Positions 40,494-54,697 of a stretch of 64,000 bases of DNA are shown in pieces (the first letter of the stretch is position 1; the number at the start of each line of letters is the position of its first letter). The stretch lies in NCBI RefSeq assembly GCF_058153355.1, contig NZ_CM177019.1; one strand, 5' to 3'. The notes under the pieces are model-generated. The model saw only the letters and a list, made by a program, of their open reading frames with translations, did no database searches and was not told the origin of the DNA. Both the position numbers and the translations under genes were made by a program.

Positions 40494-40576
40494 AGAGTGA
40501 CCGCCTGTAATTGGCGTGTTTTTGCATAAATGGAACAGGGTTTTGTAGTGAAAACATATTGCTAAGGAGGATTTAT

Positions 40577-41422
40577 ATGGGAGATGGAAAGGGTAGTACG
40601 AGCGGAAAAAGCCAGAGCGGTGAACAGTGTGTAGTTTTAAAGGAGGGAAAAATTACTAATGATTTTAAAATAATGATGAGAGAGGCTCTGAAGGCGCTGA
40701 TGGCTGTATTGAAGAAAAGAGTAGAAGATCTTGGTGATAAATGGGGAGAGGAACAAAATCAGGAGTTTATAAATATATTTGGTATTGATGGAAATACTTA
40801 TATTAAATTAGAGTTCCCTTTCGGGGGGCGTAAGGTTATGTTTCCAGAGAATATAAAGGCAAGGGATTATATGAGAAATGGCGTTACTCGCCTGTATGAG
40901 ATATGTGGGGAATTATCTGTGGAAGGTGATTGTGTAGACGTTACTATTCATGACCATTTCCTCAAACGTGATGCCAATTGTAATCTTGTTCTTAATGACA
41001 AAGGGGGTAATGAATATGTTGACAAAGACGTAATCAGGCCCAAAACCGGTAACTTTGTGAATTGTACAGATAATGACGCTTATGCTGCCAATGTAACTTA
41101 CGATCAGATTTTGGGTGTAAAACCTGGAGGCTTTAAAAGTTTGGTAAGTATAACTATAGGACAAAGATTTATAGATAGGCCACCCACTGGGAAAAACTCT
41201 AAGGCATCGACACTCTGCCATGAACTATCTCACTTTATAAGGTACGGGGATTCATTTAAGTTTGGAGGCATGTGGACGGAAGATATGCCGGTAGATATAG
41301 AGTATAATACAGGTGACGAATATATTGTTCATGCCACTAAATTAAAAAATGATAAAAAATCAGAACTATTTCAGAATGCATATAATATCGAACGTTATTT
41401 CGAGATTCATGTACCATATTGA
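40577..41422 (+). CDS. Putative T6SS effector, HExxH zincin-like metallopeptidase candidate
   Basis: 281 aa from ATG 40577 (RBS aaggagg upstream); AT-rich; HELSH motif at 41219-41233 followed by …GGMWTEDMPVDIEYNTGDEY…; no signal peptide; directly downstream of vgrG-1. Confidence 0.55.
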   Translation: MGDGKGSTSGKSQSGEQCVVLKEGKITNDFKIMMREALKALMAVLKKRVEDLGDKWGEEQNQEFINIFGIDGNTYIKLEFPFGGRKVMFPENIKARDYMRNGVTRLYEICGELSVEGDCVDVTIHDHFLKRDANCNLVLNDKGGNEYVDKDVIRPKTGNFVNCTDNDAYAANVTYDQILGVKPGGFKSLVSITIGQRFIDRPPTGKNSKASTLCHELSHFIRYGDSFKFGGMWTEDMPVDIEYNTGDEYIVHATKLKNDKKSELFQNAYNIERYFEIHVPY

Positions 41423-41446
41423 TGCTTTTATTTGACGGGGGAGTAT

Positions 41447-42355
41447 ATGCTTGCTAGATGGATTGTTTTTATTGTTTTTTTTGCGCATCCAATATTTGCT
41501 TATGATATCTCTGGCGATTATGCTGTTCATTACAGATATGGGAAGTTATATTGGAATGGAGTAATGGACAAACTTGGTGTCTATCCTCGTGTAGAGCCGA
41601 CAAGGCTTAATTATTATGATTATTATGATGATCTTTCAGCCTATGCTGTTTTTCAATATTATACTATCAGTAAAAATGAGAGTCAGTATAATCAAGATAA
41701 AAATAAAATATATCTTCATCTTTCCGTGCATCAGAAAGAAAATATTGTAGCAGCTGCAGTGGTTTTATCGAATAAAAGCCAGGGATCTTATTTTGTTCAT
41801 CGACTAACTCTTCCTCTTGACGTTAACGGCGGGCCTTACTCTTCCTTGTGTAGTGGTGTGTTTATACCGATAATGGATAACATTCAGTTGGATTTTTTAA
41901 AAAAAACAAAATGTAGCTTTGGTGAATGGAAAAATAAATCCGTTTGGCACGAGATATTAACAGGGAAAGAGCTATCCTTTGATGTCATATTGAACGATTA
42001 TTATGCCTTTTTACCGGGCATTCATCGTTATAATATAGGAACGGTAGAATTTACAATAGTTAATCAAGAGTGGTTTACAGAACAATGTATATATGAGTAT
42101 TTTCTTTCTATTATGAACTGGCGGGCAGAAAGTGAGTGTACTAATCCTATAGATAAAATAAGATATGGTATAGAGGAGTGGCGGGTTTGGAGAATTTGTG
42201 GACCTTATCGTGGGTCAGGTCTATTTCAGGATTTTTTAGCACGCTTTGGCTATCATGGCGGTAATGATAATATATTCAAAATAAGATCAAATCAGGTTGT
42301 GGTTACTATTGATGGGGATAGGGCATCTCCTCCTTATTCGTTGAGGAATTATTAA
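41447..42355 (+). CDS. Putative cognate immunity protein (secreted/periplasmic) for the HExxH effector
   Basis: ~303 aa with N-terminal signal peptide MLARWIVFIVFFAHPIFA; AT-rich; starts 24 bp after the effector stop; no recognisable family. Confidence 0.45.
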   Translation: MLARWIVFIVFFAHPIFAYDISGDYAVHYRYGKLYWNGVMDKLGVYPRVEPTRLNYYDYYDDLSAYAVFQYYTISKNESQYNQDKNKIYLHLSVHQKENIVAAAVVLSNKSQGSYFVHRLTLPLDVNGGPYSSLCSGVFIPIMDNIQLDFLKKTKCSFGEWKNKSVWHEILTGKELSFDVILNDYYAFLPGIHRYNIGTVEFTIVNQEWFTEQCIYEYFLSIMNWRAESECTNPIDKIRYGIEEWRVWRICGPYRGSGLFQDFLARFGYHGGNDNIFKIRSNQVVVTIDGDRASPPYSLRNY

Positions 42356-42510: not shown

Positions 42511-44712
42511 ATGTCATTAAAAGGGCTGCGCTTTACGCTGACGGTGGACGGACTGGTGCCGGAGACGTTTGCGGTGGTGGATTTCCGCCTCACGCAGGCA
42601 TACTCATCGCCGTTCGTCCTGGATGTGGACGTTGCCAGCGACTCGTTCCGCCAGACGGCGGAGAAGCTGCTGGAGAAGGGGGCCGTACTGACCATCTGGC
42701 AGGGTGGCACGGCGCTGCGTTATGTGAGCGGTGTGGTGTCGGGGTTCGGCATGAAGGAGCACAACGGCTGGCAGATGCAGTACCACCTTCAGATACGTCC
42801 GCCCCTGTGGCGCAGCGGGCTGCGCCAGAACTACCGAATCTTCCAGCAGCAGGACATTCAGGCCATCTCCGCCACGCTGTTAAACGAGGACGGAGTGACG
42901 CAGTGGACGCCGCGCTTTTATGAGAGCCACCCGGCACGGGAGTTCTGCGTCCAGTACGGTGAAAGCGACATGGCGTTTCTGACCCGGCTGTGGGCGGGGG
43001 AAGGCATCTTCTTTTATGACAGATACGCTGACGACAGCCCGGAGCAGACGCTCACGCTGTGCGATGATGTGGCGGGCCTGCCGGTGTACGGGGAGATACC
43101 GTTTAACCCGAACACCCGTGAGGTGACGACGGCGTGCATCAGCCTGTTCCGCTACCAGGCGCAGGTGCGGCCCTCGCAGGTGCGTTCAAAAGACCACACG
43201 TTTAAGGTGCCGGACTGGCCGGGTATTTACATTGAGGATGCTGAAAACCTCAACGGGCAACTGAAGCAGTACAAAATCCTGGACTGGCCGGGGCGCTACA
43301 AGGACGAGCAGCATGGTCAGGACTTTACCCGCTACCGGCTGGAAGGGCTGCGTAACAGTGCTGAAACCGCCACAGGTATCAGTAACTCCCCGGCGCTGTG
43401 GCCGGGACGGCGGTTCACCTTGACGGGGCATCCGGTACAGGGAGCGAACCCGAACCGTGAGTGGCAGGTGGTGAGCAGCACGCTGACGGGGAGCCAGCCG
43501 CAGGCGCTGCACGGGAGTCACGGTGAAGGGACGACACTGAGCAATCAGTTTGAGGTGATACCGGCAGACAGGACGTGGCGTCACGCGCCGCTGCCGAAGC
43601 CGAAGGTGGACGGCCCGCAGAGTGCCATCGTGACCGGGCCGAAGGGTGAGGAGATATTCTGCGACGAGCATGGCCGGGTACGGGTGAAGTTTCACTGGGA
43701 CCGTTATCACGGGATGACGGAGGAGAGTTCGTGCTGGATACGGGTGTCGCAGGCATGGGCGGGACCGGGGTTCGGCAATCTGGCGATACCGCGTGTGGGT
43801 CAGGAAGTGATAGTGGACTTTCTGAACGGCGACCCGGACCAGCCCATTGTGACGGGGCGGACCTACCATGAAGATAACCGTTCACCGGGGGATTTACCGG
43901 GCACGCGGACGCAGATGACCATCCGCTCGAAGACCTATAAAGGAAGCGGCTTTAATGAACTGCGTTTCGAGGATGCGACGGACAGTGAGCAGGTGTATAT
44001 CCACGCGCAGAAGAACATGGACACGGAGGTGCTTAACGACCGGACGACGGACGTGAAGCATGACCATACGGAGACCATCGGTAACGACCAGAAGATAAGG
44101 GTGGTGAAGGGGCAGACGGTTGAGGTCGGCACCAGAAAAGAAGGGGGTCACGACCAGAGTATCACGGTGGCGAACGACCGGCGCATAACGGTACGTAATG
44201 ACCAGACGCTGAAGGTGACGAATGACCGGACGGTGAGCGTGAGTCACGATGACGGCCTGTATGTCAGAAACGACCGTAAAGTGACGGTGGAAGGGAAGCA
44301 GGAGCATAAGACGACGGGGAACCATATCAGCCTGGTGGAGGGAAAGCACAGTCTGGAGGTGAAGGGCGACCTGGCGAGGAAGATTACCGGTGCGCTGGGA
44401 ATGAAGGTCCGGAATGAAATCGTACTGGAGAGTGGCGGTAAAATCACCCTAAAGGTGGGTGGTTCGTTTGTGGTCATCCATTCAGGGGGCGTGGACATCG
44501 TCGGGCCGAAAATCAATCTCAATAGCGGCGGTAGTCCGGGAACGCCGGTGCCGACGCTACGACCGGCGGTTTTGAAAGCGCTGGCAGATTATGACAATGG
44601 CGGACCTGGAACTGAAGGGGCGGAGCCACCACGGAAAAGTGTACAGGAAGCCTTTGATCCTCCCCAGCAGGATAAGGTACCGCCACAACGGCCGGGAAGA
44701 TTCTCACGATAA
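42511..44712 (+). CDS. vgrG: Type VI secretion spike protein VgrG (copy 2)
   Basis: 733 aa from MSLKGLRFTLTVDGLVPETFAVVDF…; same architecture as copy 1; short Pro/Gln-rich C-terminal tail. Confidence 0.9.
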   Translation: MSLKGLRFTLTVDGLVPETFAVVDFRLTQAYSSPFVLDVDVASDSFRQTAEKLLEKGAVLTIWQGGTALRYVSGVVSGFGMKEHNGWQMQYHLQIRPPLWRSGLRQNYRIFQQQDIQAISATLLNEDGVTQWTPRFYESHPAREFCVQYGESDMAFLTRLWAGEGIFFYDRYADDSPEQTLTLCDDVAGLPVYGEIPFNPNTREVTTACISLFRYQAQVRPSQVRSKDHTFKVPDWPGIYIEDAENLNGQLKQYKILDWPGRYKDEQHGQDFTRYRLEGLRNSAETATGISNSPALWPGRRFTLTGHPVQGANPNREWQVVSSTLTGSQPQALHGSHGEGTTLSNQFEVIPADRTWRHAPLPKPKVDGPQSAIVTGPKGEEIFCDEHGRVRVKFHWDRYHGMTEESSCWIRVSQAWAGPGFGNLAIPRVGQEVIVDFLNGDPDQPIVTGRTYHEDNRSPGDLPGTRTQMTIRSKTYKGSGFNELRFEDATDSEQVYIHAQKNMDTEVLNDRTTDVKHDHTETIGNDQKIRVVKGQTVEVGTRKEGGHDQSITVANDRRITVRNDQTLKVTNDRTVSVSHDDGLYVRNDRKVTVEGKQEHKTTGNHISLVEGKHSLEVKGDLARKITGALGMKVRNEIVLESGGKITLKVGGSFVVIHSGGVDIVGPKINLNSGGSPGTPVPTLRPAVLKALADYDNGGPGTEGAEPPRKSVQEAFDPPQQDKVPPQRPGRFSR
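43497..44374. repeat. Near-identical ~0.9-kb vgrG 3'-core repeat, copy 2 of 3
   Basis: See copy 1. Confidence 0.85.
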
Positions 44713-44721
44713 GGACTGAAC

Positions 44722-47211
44722 ATGAAAATCAGCCATCCCATCAGGGATAAAGAAGGCAAAGAGTTTCGCTCACTGGATGAGATAATGCGGCTTATTGACA
44801 AAGAAGCGCACGGAACCTGGCTGCTGGGTGGAAACGGGCTGTGGCACGGCGGGATACATATCAGTGACGTGTCTAATCCGTTATCAGCCCTGAAACCGGA
44901 TACCGCCGCTACCGGAGAACCGGTTCCTCTTCAGTTTATGGCCGATGGCACCATTGCGGCGTACCGGATAAATAATGATTACCTGAAAGGCCCCTACAAA
45001 GGGCAGCAACTCCGTTACAGCAGCACATTTGTTCTGGTGAAATCGCAGTGCCAGCCAGACCCGCAAAAAAAAGAAAGCTGGCTGGAATTTTACTGTCTCT
45101 ATATGCATCTGGCCCCGGTGAACGATTATCCCGGCTCCCCCTGCTATAAAGTTAAAACCGGGCATGGTGGCATATTGCTGCACCGATACATCCCGGGAAA
45201 GAACGGCCTTCCCGAGGGGCAGGAAAGCGGAGATCATGCCACGTACTGGATACCCCCGAAAATCAGCGGAAACAGGACACTTAATGCGGGAGATCGGTTT
45301 GTGTCATCCCGGACCGGACGTTTTTACGTGACCAATAACGGCCAGCCGGTCCTGACGACATTCGGACTGGTTCGCCTGCTGGAAGGCAATAAACCGGGGA
45401 ATGAGCAGTACTGGGTGACCCTGGATCCGGATCTGATGGAGTCAGATGGCGAAATACAGATGCTGATGCCTGAGTGGATGCAGAAGGCGAAGGCAAAAGG
45501 CATTTTTGACTCGGTACAGACGGTCGACGAAACGGAAGAGTGGAAAGTCAGTGCCGGAACACCGGTCGGATTTATGGGATGCGAGGATTATCCTGGCGAG
45601 GGAAGCGGTGAGATTGAGCGCGAGTGGTTCGTCCATCTGGAGGTTCTGAGTACAGACCCGAATATGCCAAAGTTCTTATCCAACCCGGCAGGCGTTAAGG
45701 GAGAAAAACGGACTGTTCTGGCACCAAAAGGGATAATTTTATACACCCGGCAGGCCGTTCCGGGACAGGAGGTATTTACCGCAACCGCAGCCACGCTGGG
45801 TGCTCAGCGCGTTCTTCCGCGGGAAGCCACGACACCAGTCACGGATGAATCGCAGCAGTGGTGGTTTAATATCACCGGAACCGGCTGGCTGCCACAAAAG
45901 GATGTTGAAGAGGCCGGACAGTATGATTTACTGAAGCTGGGTTTTCAACCGCTGGAGGAGAACAGCAGCGGTGACATGACGTACAGCCCGTACGAAGGAT
46001 GGGTGCCGGAAGCGTTTGACTCAATAAGCCGTGCCGCAGAACAGGGAGATGAGTGGCTGTATGAGCAGGTACCGCCCTTTTATCGTGAGCTGATGGCGGG
46101 TATGGATCAGGACGGTGATGGAAAAGTGACGGAGGAAGAGATCAGACAGGCGCTGATCGTGCGTGAACCACTGGTGAGAAATGTGGTGAATCATCTGATA
46201 GTTAAACACCACAGCGAATGGTACGGAGGGCGCTCGACAGGGCGGTGGGAAGGATTTTATAAAGATCTGGATACAGAGGAAGTGGCATACTGTGAGAAGT
46301 GGCAGCTGGATCTGGAGTGGATGAGCGGGGTATCTCCGTTTAATAGTGATGATGCTGTGTGGCATTTTCATCCGGTTGTGTTTTTGGACGCTATTAATTC
46401 CAAATCTGTGTGTGCTTGCAACAGAGATATAACATTAGATGAATTAAAAAAAGTTGCTCCTGCAGTAAGTGAAGGTCTTCTCAAAAGGTACCTCTACGAT
46501 ATAAATGCAGGGTTTATTCGGTTTGGTATGACCACTTGTAGAGAAAAAGCCCATTTTCTTGCTCAAATTATTCACGAGAGCGGTTATTTTAGATATACCA
46601 AAGAAATTAATGGTGAATCAGCTTCATATAGTCCGTGGTATGGCCGAGGCTTAATACAAGTTACAGGCGAAAGTAATTACACCGCCTATGGGGAATATAT
46701 CAATGAGGACGTAACATCTTCAGATTCCGCAAGAGATAAACTCATATCCTCCCCACATTGCGTATTATCTGCGTTTTGGTATTTCAATATATTCAAAAGA
46801 ATAAATGAAGATGCTAAAAATGATGATTTTAATAAAATTACAGTAGTGATTAATGGAGGGTATAATCATTATGATGAACGGTTGTCGATATTTAATAAAT
46901 TGGTTACCTCACTTGCTGCCGAGCATTTAAATCAGAAAGAAATGAACGACGATTTCTTGTTTGATGATAGTGACGTATATGATAATAAAGTATATGCTTT
47001 GGGATGGGGGATATGGCATGATCCTGATAGCTCCCGAAGAGGGACGATCAAGAGTAACGAAGAAGCATTAAAAGGTTATAGAAGGGCGAAAGAATTAATT
47101 GACCTGCATCCGTTTCCTCAGGAAGGGCGTGAGGGTGATAGAAAAGTATATGGAATAGAAAAAAGGAATATATCCACATTTGTAGAGAGACGAATAACTG
47201 AACTGGAGTAA
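44722..47211 (+). CDS. Large T6SS effector: possible M23/LytM-like N-region, EF-hand calcium-binding motif, C-terminal GH19/lysozyme-like peptidoglycan hydrolase domain
   Basis: 829 aa; EF-hand loop DQDGDGKVTEEE (~46102); C-terminal …REKAHFLAQIIHESGYFRYTKEINGESASYSPWYGRGLIQVTGESNYTAYG… (from ~46537) matches the GH19 / 'predicted chitinase' catalytic signature; N-region WHGGIHISDV…ADGTIAAY…YMHL resembles a divergent M23 peptidase (tentative). Confidence 0.7.
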   Translation: MKISHPIRDKEGKEFRSLDEIMRLIDKEAHGTWLLGGNGLWHGGIHISDVSNPLSALKPDTAATGEPVPLQFMADGTIAAYRINNDYLKGPYKGQQLRYSSTFVLVKSQCQPDPQKKESWLEFYCLYMHLAPVNDYPGSPCYKVKTGHGGILLHRYIPGKNGLPEGQESGDHATYWIPPKISGNRTLNAGDRFVSSRTGRFYVTNNGQPVLTTFGLVRLLEGNKPGNEQYWVTLDPDLMESDGEIQMLMPEWMQKAKAKGIFDSVQTVDETEEWKVSAGTPVGFMGCEDYPGEGSGEIEREWFVHLEVLSTDPNMPKFLSNPAGVKGEKRTVLAPKGIILYTRQAVPGQEVFTATAATLGAQRVLPREATTPVTDESQQWWFNITGTGWLPQKDVEEAGQYDLLKLGFQPLEENSSGDMTYSPYEGWVPEAFDSISRAAEQGDEWLYEQVPPFYRELMAGMDQDGDGKVTEEEIRQALIVREPLVRNVVNHLIVKHHSEWYGGRSTGRWEGFYKDLDTEEVAYCEKWQLDLEWMSGVSPFNSDDAVWHFHPVVFLDAINSKSVCACNRDITLDELKKVAPAVSEGLLKRYLYDINAGFIRFGMTTCREKAHFLAQIIHESGYFRYTKEINGESASYSPWYGRGLIQVTGESNYTAYGEYINEDVTSSDSARDKLISSPHCVLSAFWYFNIFKRINEDAKNDDFNKITVVINGGYNHYDERLSIFNKLVTSLAAEHLNQKEMNDDFLFDDSDVYDNKVYALGWGIWHDPDSSRRGTIKSNEEALKGYRRAKELIDLHPFPQEGREGDRKVYGIEKRNISTFVERRITELE

Positions 47212-47216
47212 TTGAT

Positions 47217-47627
47217 ATGAAAGTTAATTTATTGGTTTTACTGTTTTGTTTGGTGCCTTGTTGTTTATTGGCTAAACAACAAACAACGGTAGGCTGTTTT
47301 AGCGCTGGGAAAACAAATTTAAAGTTTGTTGAAATATCGTCTGGCGATATTTTTTTAGGTTATGTGATTTATGAGAAATCCTCAAAATTTATACCTCTTG
47401 CGTTTATAAATAAATTAGAAGTGACTTTCGATGACAGGCCTTCTGAATTTTCTTATGCATGGAGCGAGGTTGTAAATGGAAAAATTAATGGGTTGTATGT
47501 TGTTTCCACACAAGGTGCAAGATTTAATTTGTTTCATTATAAATCAATAAGTGGGAAAACAACTGAGTTTGAAGAAAATATTGAGGCATATAATGATGAT
47601 GGTACTGATTGCAAATGGACTGGATGA
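47217..47627 (+). CDS. Putative periplasmic immunity protein for the lysozyme-like effector
   Basis: 136 aa with N-terminal signal sequence MKVNLLVLLFCLVPCCLLA; begins 5 bp after the effector stop; AT-rich. Confidence 0.45.
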   Translation: MKVNLLVLLFCLVPCCLLAKQQTTVGCFSAGKTNLKFVEISSGDIFLGYVIYEKSSKFIPLAFINKLEVTFDDRPSEFSYAWSEVVNGKINGLYVVSTQGARFNLFHYKSISGKTTEFEENIEAYNDDGTDCKWTG

Positions 47628-47775: not shown

Positions 47776-49070
47776 ACAGGCAGGCAGGGAAAGATCACGT
47801 AACGCTGCTTTTTTGTACTATACAATTCGCATTTTATGTTTGAAAATTGAGATATTCCTCATTACCTGAAGCTGTTTTTTATTGCTTATACATGATCAAA
47901 TACTCCTTACATAATTAAGGAGAACAAAATGGTACTTAAAAAATTGATGGAACATATTTCTATTATCCCCGATTACAGACAAGCCTGGAAAGTGGAACAT
48001 AAATTATCGGATATTCTACTGTTGACTATTTGCGCCGTTATTTCGGGTGCAGAAGGCTGGGAAGATATAGAGGATTTTGGGGAAACACATCTCGATTTTT
48101 TGAAGCAATATGGTGATTTTGAAAATGGTATTCCTGTTCACGATACCATTGTCAGAGTTGTATCCTGTATCAGTCCTGCAAAATTTCACGAGTGCTTTAT
48201 TAACTGGATGCGTGACTGCCATTCTTCAGATGATAAAGGCGTCATTGCAATTGATGGAAAAACGCTCCGGCACTCTTATGACAAGAGTCGCCGCAGGGGA
48301 GCGATTCATGTCATTAGTGCGTTCTCAACAATGCACAGTCTGGTCATCGGACAGATCAAGACGGATGAGAAATCCAATGAGATTACAGCTATCCCAGAAC
48401 TTCTTAACATGCTGGATATTAAAGGAAAAATCATCACAACTGATGCGATGGGTTGCCAGAAAGATATTGCAGAGAAGATACAAAAACAGGGAGGTGATTA
48501 TTTATTCGCGGTAAAAGGAAACCAGGGGCGGCTAAATAAAGCCTTTGAGGAAAAATTTCCGCTGAAAGAATTAAATAATCCAGATCATGACAGTTAAGCG
48601 ATTAGTGAAAAGAGTCACGGCAGAGAAAAAATCCGTCTTCATATTGTTTGCGATGTCCCTGATGAACTTATTGATTTCACGTTTGAATGGAAAGGTCTGA
48701 AGAAATTATGCGTGGCAGTCTCCTTTCGGTTAATAATAGCAGAACAAAAGAAAGAGCCAGAAATGACGGTCAGATATTATATCAGTTCTGCTGATTTAAC
48801 CGCAGAGAAGTTCGCCACAGCAATCCGAAACCACTGGCACGTGGAGAATAAGCTGCACTGGCGTCTGGACGTGGTAATGAATGAAGACGACTGCAAAATA
48901 AGAAGAGGAAACGCCGCAGAATTATTTTCAGGGATACGGCACATCGCTATTAATATTTTAACGAATGATAAGGTATTCAAGGCAGGGTTAAGACGTAAGA
49001 TGCGAAAAGCAGCCATGGACAGAAACTATCTCGCGTCAGTCCTTGCGGGGAGCGGGCTTTCGTAATCTTG
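47776..49070 (+). mobile_element. ISAs1-family (H-repeat / ISEc1-like) element inserted into vgrG copy 3
   Basis: ~1.3 kb; contains the H-repeat transposase gene; left-end sequence (gtacaggcagggaaagatcac…) recurs at 51856 and ~53976; right end abuts vgrG sequence beginning mid-gene (…FEVIPADRTW…). Confidence 0.7.
47929..49065 (+). pseudogene. ISAs1-family transposase (H-repeat protein, YhhI-like) with an in-frame TAA at 48595-48597
   Basis: ORFs 47929-48597 and 48712-49065 are in the same frame and both match the H-repeat protein ([58 protein letters not shown]… and …[41 protein letters not shown]…); full span would encode 378 aa. Confidence 0.8.
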
Positions 49071-49074
49071 CCCT

Positions 49075-49900
49075 GGAGGTGATACCGGCGGACAGGACGT
49101 GGCGTCACGCGCCCCTGCCGAAGCCGAAGGTGGACGGCCCGCAGAGTGCCATCGTGACCGGGCCGAAGGGCGAGGAGATATTCTGCGACGAGCATGGCCG
49201 GGTACGGGTGAAGTTTCACTGGGACCGTTATCACGGGATGACGGAGGAGAGTTCATGCTGGATACGGGCGTCGCAGGCATGGGCGGGACCGGGGTTCGGC
49301 AATCTGGCGATACCGCGTGTGGGTCAGGAAGTGATAGTGGACTTTCTGAACGGCGACCCGGACCAGCCCATTGTGACGGGGCGGACATACCATGAGGACA
49401 ACCGTTCACCGGGGGATTTACCGGGCACGCGGACGCAGATGACCATCCGCTCGAAGACCTATAAAGGAAGCGGCTTTAATGAACTGCGTTTCGAGGATGC
49501 GACGGACAGTGAGCAGGTGTATATCCACGCGCAGAAGAACATGGACACGGAGGTGCTTAACGACCGGACGACGGACGTGAAGCATGACCATACGGAGACC
49601 ATCGGTAACGACCAGAAGATAAGGGTGGTGAAGGGGCAGACGGTTGAGGTCGGCACCAGAAAAGAAGGGGGTCACGACCAGAGTATCACGGTGGCGAACG
49701 ACCGGCGCATAACGGTACGTAATGACCAGACGCTGAAGGTGACGAATGACCGGACGGTGAGCGTGAGTCACGATGACGGCCTGTATGTCAGAAACGACCG
49801 TAAAGTGACGGTGGAAGGGAAGCAGGAGCATAAGACGACGGGGAACCATATCAGTCTGGTGGAGGGAACGCACAGTCTGGAGGTGAAGGGCGACCTGGCG
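49075..49900. repeat. Near-identical vgrG 3'-core repeat, copy 3 of 3
   Basis: See copy 1. Confidence 0.8.
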
Positions 49901-51492
49901 AGGAAGATTACCGGTGCGCTGGGAATGAAGGTCCGGGATGAAATCGTACTGGAGAGTGGTGGTAAAATCACCCTGAAGTGGGTGGCTCGTTTGTGGTCGT
50001 TCATTCTGGTGGTGTGGATATTGTCGGACCGAAAATAAATCTGAATTGCGGGCGCAGTCCGGGGACGCCGATAAATACACTACAACCGGCAGTTATGGAC
50101 GCTCTGGCTGACGAGCAGTATGACAGAGGGAATGCTGGCGGCGGGAATGACGGAGAGCCTAGTGATGAGGATGAATCAGAAGGTGGAGAAGAAGACAAGG
50201 ACGATTCAGATGAACTGGTAATTCCTGTATACGCAAAATCTTGTCTGAAGGAGAAAGGCTGCACTGATGCTGGTACGACCATGGAGCCATCGAAACATTT
50301 TGGTGATATGGCTCTATTTGCCCAGCCAGTGGAGGATGACTGTTGCGGCTATGGTACACACTATCATGACGATGAAGTGGAGCAACTTGCGCAGTCAGCA
50401 AAAAAAACCTCAGGAGCGAACTCACTGACGGGGGAAATGACAGTTGCGTCAGCGGGTGTTGCGGTTCCACTAGCGGCGGAACAGTCTGCGGGAGTTTTAA
50501 CTCGCGTATGGGGAACATTAGGGGCATGGGGTGGAGAAGGTTTTTTAAGTGTATCAAAAACGGTGCCAGCCCTTGGTGTCCTAGTATCAGCACTATATCC
50601 AATACCTGCCGGTGAAGGTAGTGATAAAGTTCCTGGACGGGATGAACAGTGGCTCGAAAATGAGCTACGTCGTAAAGCGCAATCTGGAGAGACGGCAGCT
50701 ACGCGGGCGCGCTTTCTCTTTCAGCGGAATACTGCTGGTGAATTGAGGACATACGGATACCACACACCCGCAGGTTCGGAACTTGAAGGTGTTCGGGTAG
50801 CATTGATGGAGTGGAATAAGGAATTTTCCCGTTATGAATTTTCACCTGTGTCTGATTCGGGACCAAAAATATTTTGGACGCCTGCAAAGCCAGAAGGTTC
50901 AGAGCAGCCCATACACACCGGAACTCCTGTCGAACCAGTTGATCTACCTGATATTTATGTTAATCCGATACCCGATGAAAAAACAGATATCACCACGCCG
51001 CCTTCTCCAATGCCGGAGGAGCGAAATTTTAATGACTGGATACTTGTCTTTCCTGACGGTGCGGAATTAACACCAATATATGTGTATCTGAAAACTGCAA
51101 GGGATGTAGCGGGAACAGTAACAGGTAAGGGGGAGGTGTTAGCAGGTACAGGAAGATGGCTGTCGCAGGCGGGGAAAAGCTTAGGAGTGCCAATTCCACA
51201 ACAGGTCGCAAATAAACTTCGGAGTAAGTCATTTAACAATTTTGATGAATTCATGGCAGCTTTCTGGACTGCTGTAGGTGAATGTCCAGAACTATTGAGC
51301 CAATTTAATAAAGCTAACCAAACGTTGATAAAGCGTGGACGCGCACCTTATACTATATCAAGACAAAGAGTTGGGGGGCGAGGTACATTTGAAATTCATC
51401 ATATTGACGAAATCCAATATGGGGGAGAAGTCTATGATATTGATAATCTTAGAGTAAACACACCTAAAAACCACATACGATTGCATAAATAA
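49075..51492 (+). pseudogene. vgrG: vgrG copy 3, 'evolved' VgrG with C-terminal colicin E9/pyocin-type HNH DNase domain; 5'-truncated by ISAs1 and carrying a -1 frameshift near 49976
   Basis: Starts mid-gene at the ISAs1 right end; vgrG frame runs to ~49976 where ctgaagtgggtgg has lost one G relative to copies 1/2 (ctgaaggtgggtgg); downstream frame continues through a linker to …GVPIPQQVANKLRSKSFNNFDEFMAAFWTAVGECPELLSQ…RQRVGGRGTFEIHHIDEIQYGGEVYDIDNLRVNTPKNHIRLHK (~51169-51489), which aligns closely with the colicin E9 DNase domain. Confidence 0.8.
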
Positions 51493-51505
51493 AAAGGAGG
51501 TAGTA

Positions 51506-51778
51506 ATGGAGTTTAAAAATAATCTAGAAGATTATACGGAAGATGAATTTATCGAACTTCTAAATAATTTTTTTGAACCACCTGAGGAATTGCATGGCGA
51601 TAAGTTGTCGAAGTTTATTGATGATCTTGTAAGTCATTTTATTAGAATCACTCAGCACCCAGATGGTAGTGATTTGATATTCTATCCATCTGAAGATAGA
51701 GAAGATAGTCCCCAAGGGATTGTTGATGAGTTAAAACGATGGCGAGCATCGCAGGGGCTAGGATGCTTTAAAATATAA
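51506..51778 (+). CDS. Colicin E9-type DNase immunity protein (Im9-like)
   Basis: 90 aa: MEFKNNLEDYTEDEFIELLNNFF…HFIRITQHPDGSDLIFYPSEDREDSPQGIVDELKRWRASQG aligns along its length with Im9 (MELKHSISDYTEAEFLQLV…[35 protein letters not shown]); strong RBS aaggagg; 13 bp after the DNase stop. Confidence 0.85.
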   Translation: MEFKNNLEDYTEDEFIELLNNFFEPPEELHGDKLSKFIDDLVSHFIRITQHPDGSDLIFYPSEDREDSPQGIVDELKRWRASQGLGCFKI

Positions 51779-51855: not shown

Positions 51856-52301
51856 TGGTACAGGGAAAGATCACCAGAAGTACACTTTTTGTACTAAATA
51901 ATTCGCATTTTATGTTCAATAATTGAGATATTCCTCATTACCTGAGGCTGTTTTTTATTGCTTATACATGATCAAATACTCCTTACATAATTAAGGAGAA
52001 CAAAATGGAACTTAAAAAATTGATGGAACATATTTCTGTTATTCCTGATTACAGACAAGCCTGGAAAGTGGAACATAAATTGTCGGATATTCTACTTTTG
52101 ACTATTTGCTCCGTCATTTCTGGTACAGAAGGCTGGCAAGATATAGAGAATTTTGGGGAAACACATCTCGATTTTTTGAAGCGACATGGTGATTTTTGAA
52201 ATGGTATTCCTGTTCACATACCATTGCCAGAGTTGTATCCTGTATCAGCCCTGCAAAATTTCATGAGTGCTTTATTAAAAGGAAACCAGGGGCGGCTTAA
52301 T
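51856..52301 (+). mobile_element. Degraded ISAs1/H-repeat remnant (left end plus internally deleted transposase fragment) fused to effector sequence
   Basis: Left-end sequence and transposase N-terminus ([58 protein letters not shown]…) present, then a deletion to the internal …KGNQGRLN segment, which joins directly to effector-2-like sequence at ~52302. Confidence 0.6.
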
Positions 52302-53465
52302 ATCACCGGAACCGGCTGGCTGCCACAAAAGGATGTTGAAGAGGCCGGACAGTATGATTTACTGAAGCTGGGTTTTCAACCGCTGGAGGAGAACAGCAGC
52401 GGTGACATGACGTACAGCCCGTACGAAGGATGGGTGCCGGAAGCGTTTGACTCAATAAGCCGTGCCGCAGAACAGGGAGATGAGTGGCTGTATGAGCAGG
52501 TACCGCCCTTTTATCGTGAGCTGATGGCGGGTATGGATCAGGACGGTGATGGAAAAGTGACGGAGGAAGAGATCAGACAGGCGCTGACCGTGCGTGAACC
52601 ACTGGTGAGAAATGTGGTGAATCGTCTGACAGTCAGACACCACAGCGAGTGGTACGGCGGTCGCTCGACGGGACGCTGGGAAGGGTTTTATAAAGATCTG
52701 GACACCGAGGAAGTGGCATACTGTGAAAAGTGGCAGCTGGATCTGGAGTGGATGAGCGGGGTGTCTCCGTTTAATAGTGATGATGCTGTGTGGCATTTTC
52801 ATCCGGTTGTGTTTTTGAATGCTATTAATAATAGCAATTACCCAAAAACTCCTGTGAATAATGAACTTATTCCATTGGAATTTTTACGATTTTATAACGG
52901 AGATACCATTGATGATGCAGACTATGAAAATGCTGCAAGGACACTACAATGCGAAGTGGCTGCAATTAAAGCTGTTGCAAAAACTGAAACTGGTAGTTCC
53001 GGTAGCTATTTTAAATTTGAACAAGAAGATGATTACGTCCCCTCAATTCTTTTTGAAAGACATCATTTCCATCGATATACGAATGGTGTGTATGATTCTC
53101 AACCTGATATTTCCAACAGCCGTTCTGGCGGTTATGGAACACGATCGGAGCAATATCAAAAATTACTTCGTGCATATGTTTTAGATAAGCAAGCTGCGCT
53201 TAAATCGGCATCGTGGGGTAAATTTCAGATATTGGCTTCAAATTACCAAGCTACCGGGTACTCTTCGCCCGAAGAGTTTATAATATCGATTTCAGAGTTA
53301 GAGAAAAACCATCTGGCGGCATTCATTAACTTCATAAAATCTAATCCTGTATTATTGCGTGCTATTAGAGATAAAGATTGGCTTAACTTTGCTCTATGTT
53401 ATAATGGGCAAAGTCAGCGAGGATATGATGACAGAATAAGGGCTAATTATGAGCAATATAGATAG
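52302..53465 (+). CDS. Orphan effector 3' module: conserved effector mid-region fused to a muramidase-like (PF11860/DUF3380-type) C-terminal domain; 5' end replaced by the H-repeat remnant
   Basis: 52302-52817 is ~97% identical to effector-2 45871-46386 (NITGTGWLPQKDVEEAGQYDLLK…EF-hand…VWHFHPVVFL), after which the sequence diverges into …AAIKAVAKTETGSSGSYFKFEQEDDYVPSILFERHHFHRYT…SASWGKFQILASNYQATGYSSPEEFI…NGQSQRGYDDRIRANYEQY, resembling the N-acetylmuramidase family (recalled motif pattern, not searched). Confidence 0.55.
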   Translation: MTGTGWLPQKDVEEAGQYDLLKLGFQPLEENSSGDMTYSPYEGWVPEAFDSISRAAEQGDEWLYEQVPPFYRELMAGMDQDGDGKVTEEEIRQALTVREPLVRNVVNRLTVRHHSEWYGGRSTGRWEGFYKDLDTEEVAYCEKWQLDLEWMSGVSPFNSDDAVWHFHPVVFLNAINNSNYPKTPVNNELIPLEFLRFYNGDTIDDADYENAARTLQCEVAAIKAVAKTETGSSGSYFKFEQEDDYVPSILFERHHFHRYTNGVYDSQPDISNSRSGGYGTRSEQYQKLLRAYVLDKQAALKSASWGKFQILASNYQATGYSSPEEFIISISELEKNHLAAFINFIKSNPVLLRAIRDKDWLNFALCYNGQSQRGYDDRIRANYEQYR

Positions 53466-53898
53466 AGCATTAATTTTTATTTTTTTATCTGGAATTCCCT
53501 GGACTCTACACGCAGGAAATAATTATTTTTTATGTAATACATCCAAAGGAACTTTGTCATTAACAAGTTTTGGTGAAACGTTGATTTATGAAATGAATAG
53601 TCAGCATGGGAATAAATTTCAATTCATTTCAGATGGACCAATGTATTCAGGATTTTTTTATAATCATTACTCCAGATTTCAAACGGATTACTTTAGCGTT
53701 AGTTTTATTCAAAGTGGATATAAGTACTCCGTGTTTAGCAATTACGACAACGGTAGTAACATGCGAGGGGTTAGTGTCATTGATATGAAAACAAAAAAAG
53801 AATACGTTTATAATTGCAAAGATTATAAAGTGGACAGGCTTTATAATCTGAAAAAAAAGCTTAAATGTGATATTAATAATGTACTAAGTTGTCAGTAA
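53449..53898 (+). CDS. Putative periplasmic immunity protein for the muramidase-like toxin module
   Basis: 149 aa, hydrophobic N-terminus MSNIDRALIFIFLSGIPWTLHA; overlaps the effector stop by 17 nt; very AT-rich. Confidence 0.4.
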   Translation: MSNIDRALIFIFLSGIPWTLHAGNNYFLCNTSKGTLSLTSFGETLIYEMNSQHGNKFQFISDGPMYSGFFYNHYSRFQTDYFSVSFIQSGYKYSVFSNYDNGSNMRGVSVIDMKTKKEYVYNCKDYKVDRLYNLKKKLKCDINNVLSCQ

Positions 53899-53975
53899 AT
53901 TGTATCTTACAACGTTCGGGCGGTACGATTTACTGAAGCTGGCTTTTCATAGGCTGGAGGAAAACAGCAAGGGTA

Positions 53976-54645
53976 ATAAAGGTAAAGACCATATAACGCC
54001 GATTTTTTGCACTAAACAATTAGCACTAAATGTCCAATAATCAAGATATCCCTTATTATTTAATAAGTGTTTTCATAGCTTATATATATTCAGACACTCC
54101 TTACATAAACAAGGAGAAAAAATGGAACTTAAAAAATTAATGGAGCATATTTCTACTGTCCCGATTACAGACAAGTCTGGAAAGTAGAGTATAAATTATC
54201 AGATATCCTAGTGCTGATTATTTTCGCCATCCTTTCCGGAGCTGAAGGATGGGAAGATATAGAGGATTCTGGTGAGACTCATCTCGATTTGTTGAAGCAA
54301 TATGGTGATTTTTAATATGGTATTCCTATTCACGATATCATTGCCAGAGTTGTGTCCTGTATCAGTCCTGGAAAATTTCACGAGTTCTTTATTAGCTGGA
54401 TGTGTGACTGTCATTCTTCAGATAATAAAACCATCATCGCAATAGATGGAAAAGCACTCCAGCACTTTTTTGATTAGCATCGTCGCAGAGGAACAATTCA
54501 TAATCATTGCGATCTCGACGATGTATAGTCTGATCCTGCGGCAGAACAAGACGGATAAAAAATCTAATGAGAGCACACTCATCAAGAACTTCTCAACCTA
54601 ATGAATATTAAAGAAAAATCATCGCAGCCAATGAAGTAATATGCA
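53976..54645 (+). mobile_element. Heavily degraded ISAs1/H-repeat remnant (multiple stops/frameshifts, 3' truncated)
   Basis: Recognisable but broken transposase N-terminus ([11 protein letters not shown]…[28 protein letters not shown]…); preceded at 53921-53975 by another fragment of the effector mid-region (…YDLLKL…LEEN…). Confidence 0.55.
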
Positions 54646-54697
54646 AAAATAATTAGTCCTTACAAGGAGCAAAGTTCCATAATCTCCCCCGCCCCCC

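Follow-up and report, generated by a model that had tools for sequence, protein, structure and literature searches.

Orphan Rhs-CT and CdiA-CT modules are 5'-truncated copies located downstream of a full-length gene, in the same orientation, that encode a different toxin followed by its own immunity gene. In these loci the homology stops at the junction between the conserved and variable parts, and H-repeat (H-rpt; ISAs1 family) elements are interspersed. A comparable arrangement is described here for an effector of a type VI secretion system (T6SS), encoded in a 64-kb stretch of DNA (64,000 nucleotides of contig NZ_CM177019.1, assembly GCF_058153355.1; hereafter the window, whose positions are used throughout unless a locus is named). 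The window contains an Escherichia vgrG island between yibF and yibH/yibI/mtlA, a chromosomal site that is the RhsA site of E. coli K-12. With a probability of about 0.8, the region at 51856–53898 represents a displaced ('orphan'), non-autonomous 3' cassette of a WHIX-class T6SS effector, in which a truncated WHIX segment is joined to a predicted muramidase domain and followed by a putative immunity gene.

Displacement of this kind has been described for the T6SS of Vibrio cholerae, where a new module replaces an effector or its 3' end through upstream homology and an illegitimate downstream joint. The old immunity gene, sometimes with the effector 3' end, is thereby shifted downstream, and repeated rounds lead to arrays (Kirchberger et al. 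2017, PMC5361080). Activation of orphan Rhs by recombination is attributed to Koskiniemi et al. 2014, as cited in PMC5361080.

WHIX is a bipartite T6SS delivery domain that suffices for secretion and, as proposed by Fridman et al. (2025, PMC12135965), would cap the VgrG C-terminal tail. Region 1 carries the WHxxxH motif, and region 2 stops directly before the toxin domain (PMC12135965). The C-termini are interchangeable and mostly peptidoglycan-targeting, including chitinase-like, pesticin-like, lysozyme-like and N-acetylmuramidase domains, and are followed by signal-peptide immunity genes (PMC12135965). The full-length gene of the window, effector 2 (44722–47211, plus strand, 829 amino acids), contains a WHGGIH motif at residues 41–46 and is identical at 824 of 829 positions to WP_000703217.1, a protein present in the supplementary sequence file and tree of the WHIX dataset (PMC12135965). 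Based on this motif and the 99% identity to a dataset member, effector 2 is assigned to the WHIX class of polymorphic, VgrG-loaded T6SS effectors (subclass I). Its C-terminal domain is chitinase-like, with a weak Pfam GH19 match. The original prediction of C-terminal swapping in a VgrG-cargo effector therefore stands, with the refinement that the class already bears the name WHIX (PMC12135965).

The orphan cassette

A 533-bp segment of effector 2 (45866–46398, plus strand; codons 382–559, at the end of WHIX region 2) is repeated at 52297–52829 (plus strand, 176 codons). The two copies align without gaps, with 515 of 533 positions identical and 18 differences, and have direct orientation and the same codon phase; a 533-bp repeat at such identity is far beyond chance. 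A segment of about 516 bp with about 97% identity had been predicted; an ungapped comparison of 45871–46386 with 52302–52817 (offset 6431) gave 500 of 516 identities (96.9%), and the real extent of the repeat is 533 bp. Directly after the shared ...VWHFHPVVFL(D/N)AIN sequence, the expected divergence is found, as effector 2 and the orphan are unrelated beyond this point. Since WHIX region 2 ends directly before the toxin domain, this conserved junction is the WHIX/toxin boundary, and swapping of C-terminal domains there is a known property of the class. The EF-hand that had been noticed inside the shared segment is present in both copies as the loop DQDGDGKVTEEE (Pfam EF-hand_1, E 2e-4 and 9e-4). 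The loop is located at 46090–46125 and 52521–52556, corresponding to residues ~457–468 of effector 2, within WHIX region 2. This canonical EF-hand calcium-binding loop, DQDGDGKVTEEE, is kept in many, not all, of the homologues of the alignment.

The orphan copy holds most of WHIX region 2, and region 1 with its WHxxxH motif is absent. It comprises about 176 of about 559 WHIX codons, or about the last third, which by length is below the coverage used in the WHIX survey, where an RPS-BLAST match to the WHIX position-specific scoring matrix with E ≤ 1e-6 and at least 70% coverage was the criterion (PMC12135965). An assembly artefact was ruled out by the presence of identical joints in three independent complete E. 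coli genomes.

The divergent part of the orphan (52830–53465, plus strand) matches Pfam PF11860 Muramidase, formerly DUF3380, over model positions 1–174 of 175 with an E-value of 3.7e-44, in agreement with the muramidase-like, DUF3380-type domain that had been proposed. The domain also matches the solved endolysins 7q4s (3.6e-30), 5nm7 (9e-25) and 7rum (1.8e-24). In AP3gp15 (PDB 5nm7), Glu101 is the single catalytic residue, and the Glu101Ala variant loses 99.4% of activity (PMC5674055). Glu255 of the orphan open reading frame (ORF), in the sequence KTETG, aligns with this residue and is conserved in the homologues of the alignment. As judged from these matches, the toxin part is a complete PF11860 N-acetylmuramidase domain in which the predicted catalytic Glu is retained. 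The phage endolysins of this family (PMC5674055) share the same catalytic domain over its full length and the single catalytic Glu; in contrast to them, the domain studied here lacks a peptidoglycan-binding domain and is predicted to serve as a secreted toxin between bacteria, countered in the periplasm by an immunity protein of its own. Its amino acid identity to full-length WHIX effectors ranges from 80% (Salmonella, locus L012) to 89% (E. whittamii). The ratio of nonsynonymous to synonymous substitution rates (dN/dS) of the toxin domain against these full-length relatives is 0.12–0.24, most of the divergence perhaps predating the displacement.

The toxin ORF is followed by an ORF of 149 amino acids (53449–53898, plus strand) that overlaps the toxin stop codon and begins with the signal peptide-like sequence MSNIDRALIFIFLSGIPWTLHA. 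Homologues with 41–68% identity in the alignment have in common a YNHYSRFQTDY motif and four conserved Cys. In every context found, they are located directly 3' of a PF11860 toxin domain, namely in Lelliottia amnigena (L003), Salmonella arizonae (L008), Pluralibacter (L010), Salmonella enterica (L012) and E. whittamii (L007), and also behind an unlinked full-length WHIX–PF11860 gene (L004) and a Vibrio VgrG-3 with a PF11860 C-terminal domain (L005). Because this linkage is kept across different delivery scaffolds, the 149-residue ORF is regarded as the putative cognate immunity gene, as had been anticipated for a signal-peptide ORF behind the toxin. A search of Pfam with this protein returned no match, and in NCBIfam neither effector 2 and the orphan ORF nor the immunity gene of either is assigned to a family. 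The AlphaFold2 model of the immunity protein is all-beta, with a predicted local distance difference test score (pLDDT) of 82.5. No significant PDB match to the model was obtained (best Foldseek E-value 0.028, template modelling score of 0.41 or less), so that no mechanism can be borrowed from known lysozyme inhibitors. The combination of a toxin extension and a signal-peptide immunity gene is found both in effector 2 (chitinase-like domain and a 136-residue ORF) and in the orphan (PF11860 and the 149-residue ORF). A single good −35/−10 site (TTGGCT-16-TATAAT with TG; 53378–53405, plus strand), 44 bp upstream of the immunity start, is a candidate promoter and only a lead; site totals in promoter and terminator scans were not above the shuffled expectation.

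On its 5' side, the orphan WHIX segment is preceded by an ISAs1/H-rpt remnant (51861–52296, plus strand), recognized by alignment with a fuller copy at 47786–49085 and by partial ISAs1 family transposase annotations in two of the E. coli loci (L001 and L002). It retains only the left end (CAGGGAAAGATCAC...) and about 420 bp of the element, including the 5' part of the transposase gene, with an ATG at 52005, an in-frame TGA at 52197 and indels. An internal deletion of ~310 bp, with its joint at ~52278/52279, is followed by a short piece of the KGNQGRLN region. The transposase gene is joined to WHIX at 52296/52297, from inside this KGNQGRLN-coding part and at a stretch of imperfect microhomology; this is a deletion or illegitimate joint rather than the terminus of an insertion sequence (IS). 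The upstream fusion to an internally deleted H-repeat transposase fragment, without an effector N-terminus, is therefore real. The remnant does not have the features of a complete ISAs1 element (both ends and an intact transposase of ~378 residues); an intact copy of the 378-residue H-rpt transposase is present in E. whittamii.

A mechanically defined ORF of 413 amino acids (52224–53465, plus strand) starts at a TTG within the H-rpt-derived sequence and extends through the truncated WHIX segment and the muramidase domain. Neither this TTG at 52224 nor the first ATG, at 52263, is preceded by a Shine-Dalgarno-like sequence. The possibility that the H-rpt start codon drives an in-frame transposase::WHIX chimera was discarded, given the in-frame TGA at 52197 in the window; in L001 and L002, the transposase frame stops 8 codons past the deletion joint and WHIX is in another frame. 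Lacking both WHIX region 1 and a Shine-Dalgarno-like sequence, and fused to internal sequence of an ISAs1/H-rpt remnant, the orphan module is non-autonomous.

The cassette is a 5'-truncated copy, without the delivery part and translation signals, located downstream of a full-length gene in the same orientation. Its homology ends at the conserved/variable junction and is followed by a different toxin and its own immunity gene. This structure fits the displaced 3' ends of Rhs and CdiA loci with which it had originally been compared, and V. cholerae provides a precedent within the T6SS itself (PMC5361080). The scaffold differs from those of the Rhs and CdiA orphans, being a VgrG-loaded cargo effector (WHIX) instead of an Rhs/YD-repeat shell or a CdiA filament. 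In addition, the predicted toxin would act in the periplasm on peptidoglycan, and activation by recombination, as shown for orphan Rhs, would here be hypothetical. The pattern is the same as in the V. cholerae displacements, and the PF11860 toxin and the same immunity family also occur in Vibrio, as the C-terminal domain of VgrG-3 and its neighbor; the present locus differs in that the whole toxin domain is intact, not the immunity gene alone, and in that ISAs1/H-rpt copies are located at the joints. Compared with the WHIX class (PMC12135965), of which effector 2 is a member, the orphan keeps only the WHIX 3' segment.

Related loci in Escherichia and other genera

Among 5,426 complete E. coli genomes, three carry the segment, all with the orphan layout. 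In each of them, the orphan is located directly behind effector 2, with the same joints as in the window; the core flanks of the island are about 97–98% identical between the window and one of the three, E. coli N96. The single H-rpt fragment in L001 and L002 is a hybrid of the first two H-rpt copies of the window, from which it follows that the two layouts differ by one H-rpt × H-rpt recombination, with loss or gain of the vgrG3-HNH module. The toxin part is frameshifted in all three carriers by a 1-bp deletion at 52704. In N96, which has an undamaged immunity gene, the toxin domain is additionally interrupted by ISCro1; in the other two genomes (MFDS), the immunity gene contains two 1-bp deletions. 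The 533-bp WHIX segment is found at three places in the N96 chromosome (NZ_CM169999.1), only two of which are in the yibF–yibH island, and a further WHIX copy or orphan is therefore located elsewhere in this genome.

A shorter version is present in Escherichia sp. MOD1-EC7003 (L006), where the right end of an H-rpt abuts the equivalent of position 52803 and only 27 bp of WHIX are left; the toxin domain behind them is almost identical to that of the window, and the immunity gene is 100% identical. The toxin domain, immunity gene and third H-rpt of the window (52803–54690) are 99.4–100% identical to MOD1-EC7003, whereas identity falls to only 94–95% in yibH, yibI and mtlA, the change coinciding exactly with the edge of the island (~54691). 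Since the cassette is nearly identical while the core flanks differ by 5–6%, the comparison points to a recent horizontal transfer of the cassette, one limit of which would lie where the H-rpt meets yibH.

The same toxin–immunity pair is found on full-length genes in E. whittamii Sa2BVA5 (L007) and in Salmonella (L012). In E. whittamii, an internally deleted vgrG is followed in the same stretch by a full-length WHIX region (94% DNA identity to effector 2) that continues into the muramidase domain; behind it come the immunity gene, a WHIX fragment of 133 bp and an intact H-rpt. By its gene order, this locus is interpreted as the undisplaced parent configuration (vgrG–full WHIX–muramidase–immunity), which is also preserved in Salmonella. 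A vestige of WHIX is present after the immunity gene in both genomes, 53 bp in the window (53917–53969, plus strand; 85% match to effector 2 at 45915–45967) and 133 bp in E. whittamii (L007, 7418–7550). Because both vestiges start at the same WHIX position, the muramidase module itself would have displaced an older 3' end, before the states of the window and E. whittamii split.

These loci suggest the following history. An ancestral vgrG–WHIX–muramidase–immunity operon would have been superseded by a WHIX–GH19 allele, that of effector 2. The incoming DNA may have recombined through the upstream homology, with its far end joined illegitimately, and the old 3' end and its immunity gene would have been pushed downstream by the incoming allele. 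The shorter WHIX vestige behind the immunity gene would record an even earlier round of displacement.

Lelliottia, Enterobacter and Salmonella each possess orphan WHIX cassettes that are independent of this one. In Lelliottia amnigena (L003), a full-length WHIX–pesticin effector is followed ~3 kb downstream by a 785-bp repeat with 99.1% identity that ends at the same junction and continues into PF11860 and an immunity homologue, with no IS involved. Between the full-length effector and the PF11860 orphan of this locus lies an ORF of 357 residues (L003, 5865–7085), followed by an ORF of 248 residues. It joins WHIX residues ~1–53 to ~66–175 of the 3' segment and a C-terminal domain of unknown type, and looks like an internally deleted WHIX cassette. 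In Enterobacter asburiae, a WHIX–GH108 effector is followed by an orphan sharing 547 bp at 92%. In Salmonella enterica GCA_900475895.1 (L012, 1452–17839), six tandem WHIX copies are located behind one vgrG, two of them full-length and four 5'-truncated at different codons, with shared parts of 92–98.6% DNA identity. Their toxin domains include an unknown domain, pesticin, M23+GH24, PF11860 and GH19, each with an immunity-type ORF, and one of the full-length copies is a WHIX–PF11860 protein of 767 residues followed by an immunity homologue. More broadly, a database search with the orphan ORF retrieved the WHIX 3' segment fused to GH19, pesticin-like, M23+GH24, GH108, CHAP and PF11860 domains in Enterobacteriaceae.

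In all orphans examined, the 3' end of the homology is the WHIX/toxin junction and the 5' ends vary, as expected for illegitimate joints. A common 5' breakpoint, considered as several database proteins start near effector-2 residue 386, was rejected, with DNA boundaries found at codons 210, 214, 303, 327, 372, 382 and 430.

Gene order of the island

The island begins with a module of vgrG1, a small HExxH effector and its immunity gene. In N96, this effector 1 and its neighbor (window 40511–42355; L002 8787–10571) are annotated as one 'M35 family metalloendopeptidase' of 594 residues. The window has a stop codon at 41420–41422, and behind effector 1 a separate ORF has a signal-peptide-like start and a GGGGGAG ribosome-binding site. 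Given this stop and the separate ORF with its own start signals, two genes are the likelier state in the window.

The second module consists of the spike gene vgrG2 (42511–44712, plus strand; an ORF of 733 residues, annotated as tssI/VgrG in the syntenic E. coli loci), which is directly upstream of effector 2 with a gap of 10 bp, effector 2 itself, and its immunity-type gene (47217–47627, plus strand; 136 residues with a signal peptide-like N-terminus), the position of which is kept in L001 and L002. WHIX effectors are characteristically encoded in T6SS-positive genomes, often adjacent to vgrG or PAAR genes; the core genes of the T6SS fall beyond the limits of the window. The first, fuller ISAs1/H-rpt copy (~47786–49085) separates this immunity gene from the vgrG-HNH module. 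The vgrG of the latter (49043–51492) is 5'-truncated, being cut at the H-rpt right end (...TAATCTTGCCCTG|GAGGTGATACC), and is frameshifted around 49978–50038. The C-terminal domain of its product is an HNH DNase, with a partial match to NF047924 (E 4.7e-65), and an immunity-type ORF of 90 residues (51506–51778) follows. The whole module (49043–51778) is missing from all three E. coli genomes with the orphan. The H-rpt remnant and the orphan cassette follow, and the island is closed beside yibH by a third, degraded H-rpt/ISAs1 copy (53980–54690, plus strand). An ISAs1/H-rpt left end in the same orientation is thus located within 80–250 bp behind each of three successive immunity genes (47786–49085, 51861–52296 and 53980–54690).

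Recombination between the copies and present function

The differences between the two WHIX copies are not evenly distributed. The first 291 bp of the orphan segment are identical to effector 2, and the 18 differences are confined to the final 242 bp of the 533-bp segment (P about 7e-7 under random placement), 16 of them at 52588–52763. Thirteen of the differences are synonymous, and none affects the first 96 codons. At effector-2 sites 45897 and 45948, the orphans of L001 and L002 share G with the full-length gene of E. whittamii, whereas the orphan of the window has A, like effector 2. This mosaic divergence and the two homoplasic sites are most simply explained by gene conversion between the orphan and effector 2. 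Modeled in silico, one crossover at any point of the repeat deletes 6431 bp and yields an ORF of 770 residues without stops that is colinear with the Salmonella WHIX–muramidase effector (1–770 against 1–767, 78% identity). The 6.4 kb lost in such an event would comprise the vgrG3-HNH module as well as the GH19 domain with its immunity gene.

The role of the cassette in the cell can be viewed in several ways. It is rather doubtful that it is kept as an adaptive reservoir, from which recombination in the shared 533 bp would let the lineage replace the GH19 toxin by the muramidase. The direct orientation and common codon phase of the copies, the intact 413-codon ORF in the window, the indications of gene conversion and the intact 770-residue crossover product, colinear with natural effectors, are all consistent with such a role, as are the recurrent arrays in which such cassettes stand in tandem (Salmonella, Lelliottia and Enterobacter) and the activation of orphan Rhs in Salmonella, a precedent as cited in PMC5361080. 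However, no recombinant joining the effector-2 WHIX region to the muramidase was detected among the 5,426 complete E. coli genomes, where the three carriers all have the orphan layout, and their toxin part is broken by the frameshift at 52704, as well as being split by ISCro1 in N96. In MOD1-EC7003, an H-rpt has reduced the homology to 27 bp, and the crossover would also delete the effector-2 immunity gene and expose the recombinant to its siblings. Of the usable 'stockpile' in the original prediction, the possibility of an in-frame recombinant and the exchange of sequence between the copies are thus supported, and actual use is not. That the toxin remnant and immunity gene are instead decaying, neutral leftovers on a rare, IS-ridden island is considered rather unlikely. 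The independent lesions in the relatives (the toxin frameshift, ISCro1 and the immunity frameshifts of the MFDS strains), the in-frame stop and the indels that the H-rpt remnant of the window contains, the occurrence of the island in only 3 of the 5,426 genomes and the internal deletion of vgrG in E. whittamii would all be accounted for in this way. The window nevertheless retains uninterrupted ORFs for both the toxin and the immunity protein, the immunity gene is also undamaged in N96 and is 100% identical in MOD1-EC7003, and the cassette was apparently transferred recently between lineages with clearly different core flanks; the dN/dS of the toxin domain (0.12–0.24) likewise speaks against decay, although it may mostly reflect divergence before the displacement. 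It is highly improbable that the ORF of 413 residues, or a shorter product, acts alone, for example as a stand-alone secreted or housekeeping muramidase. The ORF is uninterrupted with a complete catalytic domain, and weak promoter-like sites are present within the H-rpt remnant, but these are not enriched over shuffles, the ORF starts in scrambled transposase sequence with no signal peptide, WHIX region 1 or Shine-Dalgarno-like sequence before either candidate start, and the orthologues are broken in all three other E. coli carriers.

The interpretation as a displaced, non-autonomous 3' cassette is the preferred one. Because half of the bipartite WHIX fold is gone, the toxin ORF alone could not load on VgrG, and it is probably poorly translated, judging from its start region. 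The immunity gene may still shield the cell against relatives firing the muramidase allele. Such protection would be the likeliest practical meaning of the cassette for the cell, and retained immunity a likelier benefit than a stockpile of toxins. Several points weigh against this interpretation. The E. whittamii 'parent' is itself decaying, with an internally deleted vgrG and frameshifts in a low-coverage draft. The order of events, that is, which allele displaced which, is inferred by parsimony from four genomes, and the predicted inability of the truncated WHIX to load on VgrG is derived from the published bipartite model. A benefit of the immunity gene is at odds with the two 1-bp deletions that it carries in both MFDS genomes. 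Finally, conservation of the immunity gene was rejected as a sign of selection: the whole 52803–54690 segment is 99.4–100% identical to MOD1-EC7003, and the 100% identity of the immunity gene would reflect this recent horizontal transfer, not measurable purifying selection.

The WHIX class and its polymorphism, PF11860 as a muramidase, orphan cassettes in Rhs, CdiA and V. cholerae loci, and H-rpt elements in toxin loci are already known. In the main text of the WHIX study, the word 'recombination' does not occur, and 'orphan' is reserved for effectors whose genes lie apart from T6SS genes (PMC12135965); by this wording, 5'-truncated cassettes and tandem arrays are not described there. No description of orphan WHIX cassettes, of the Escherichia intermediate states or of the 149-residue immunity family was found in the examined papers that mention WHIX or by targeted literature searches, and these three elements appear to be new. 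The orphan-cassette logic of Rhs, CdiA and Vibrio T6SS loci is thereby extended to the recently defined WHIX class. The series of states is unusually complete: E. whittamii has the contiguous parent gene, the window and three E. coli genomes share the 533-bp orphan, a cryptic Escherichia lineage is left with a stump of 27 bp, and Salmonella carries multi-cassette arrays. The 149-residue ORF defines a new putative immunity family, so far unannotated, whose members keep close linkage to PF11860 toxins, whether these are carried by cargo effectors or by evolved VgrGs. A blind spot of coverage-filtered effector surveys is also flagged, and the locus, for which a single 6.4-kb deletion is predicted, offers a tractable system for the study of recombinational switching of cargo-effector toxins.

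A broader proposal, that 5'-truncated WHIX cassettes form integron-like arrays acting as a working toxin switch across Enterobacteriaceae, with H-rpt as portable homology moving cassettes between species, is unlikely. If it were true, recombination through the conserved WHIX 3' segment would change which peptidoglycan hydrolase is carried by VgrG, and the WHIX survey would have missed all such truncated copies through its coverage filter.

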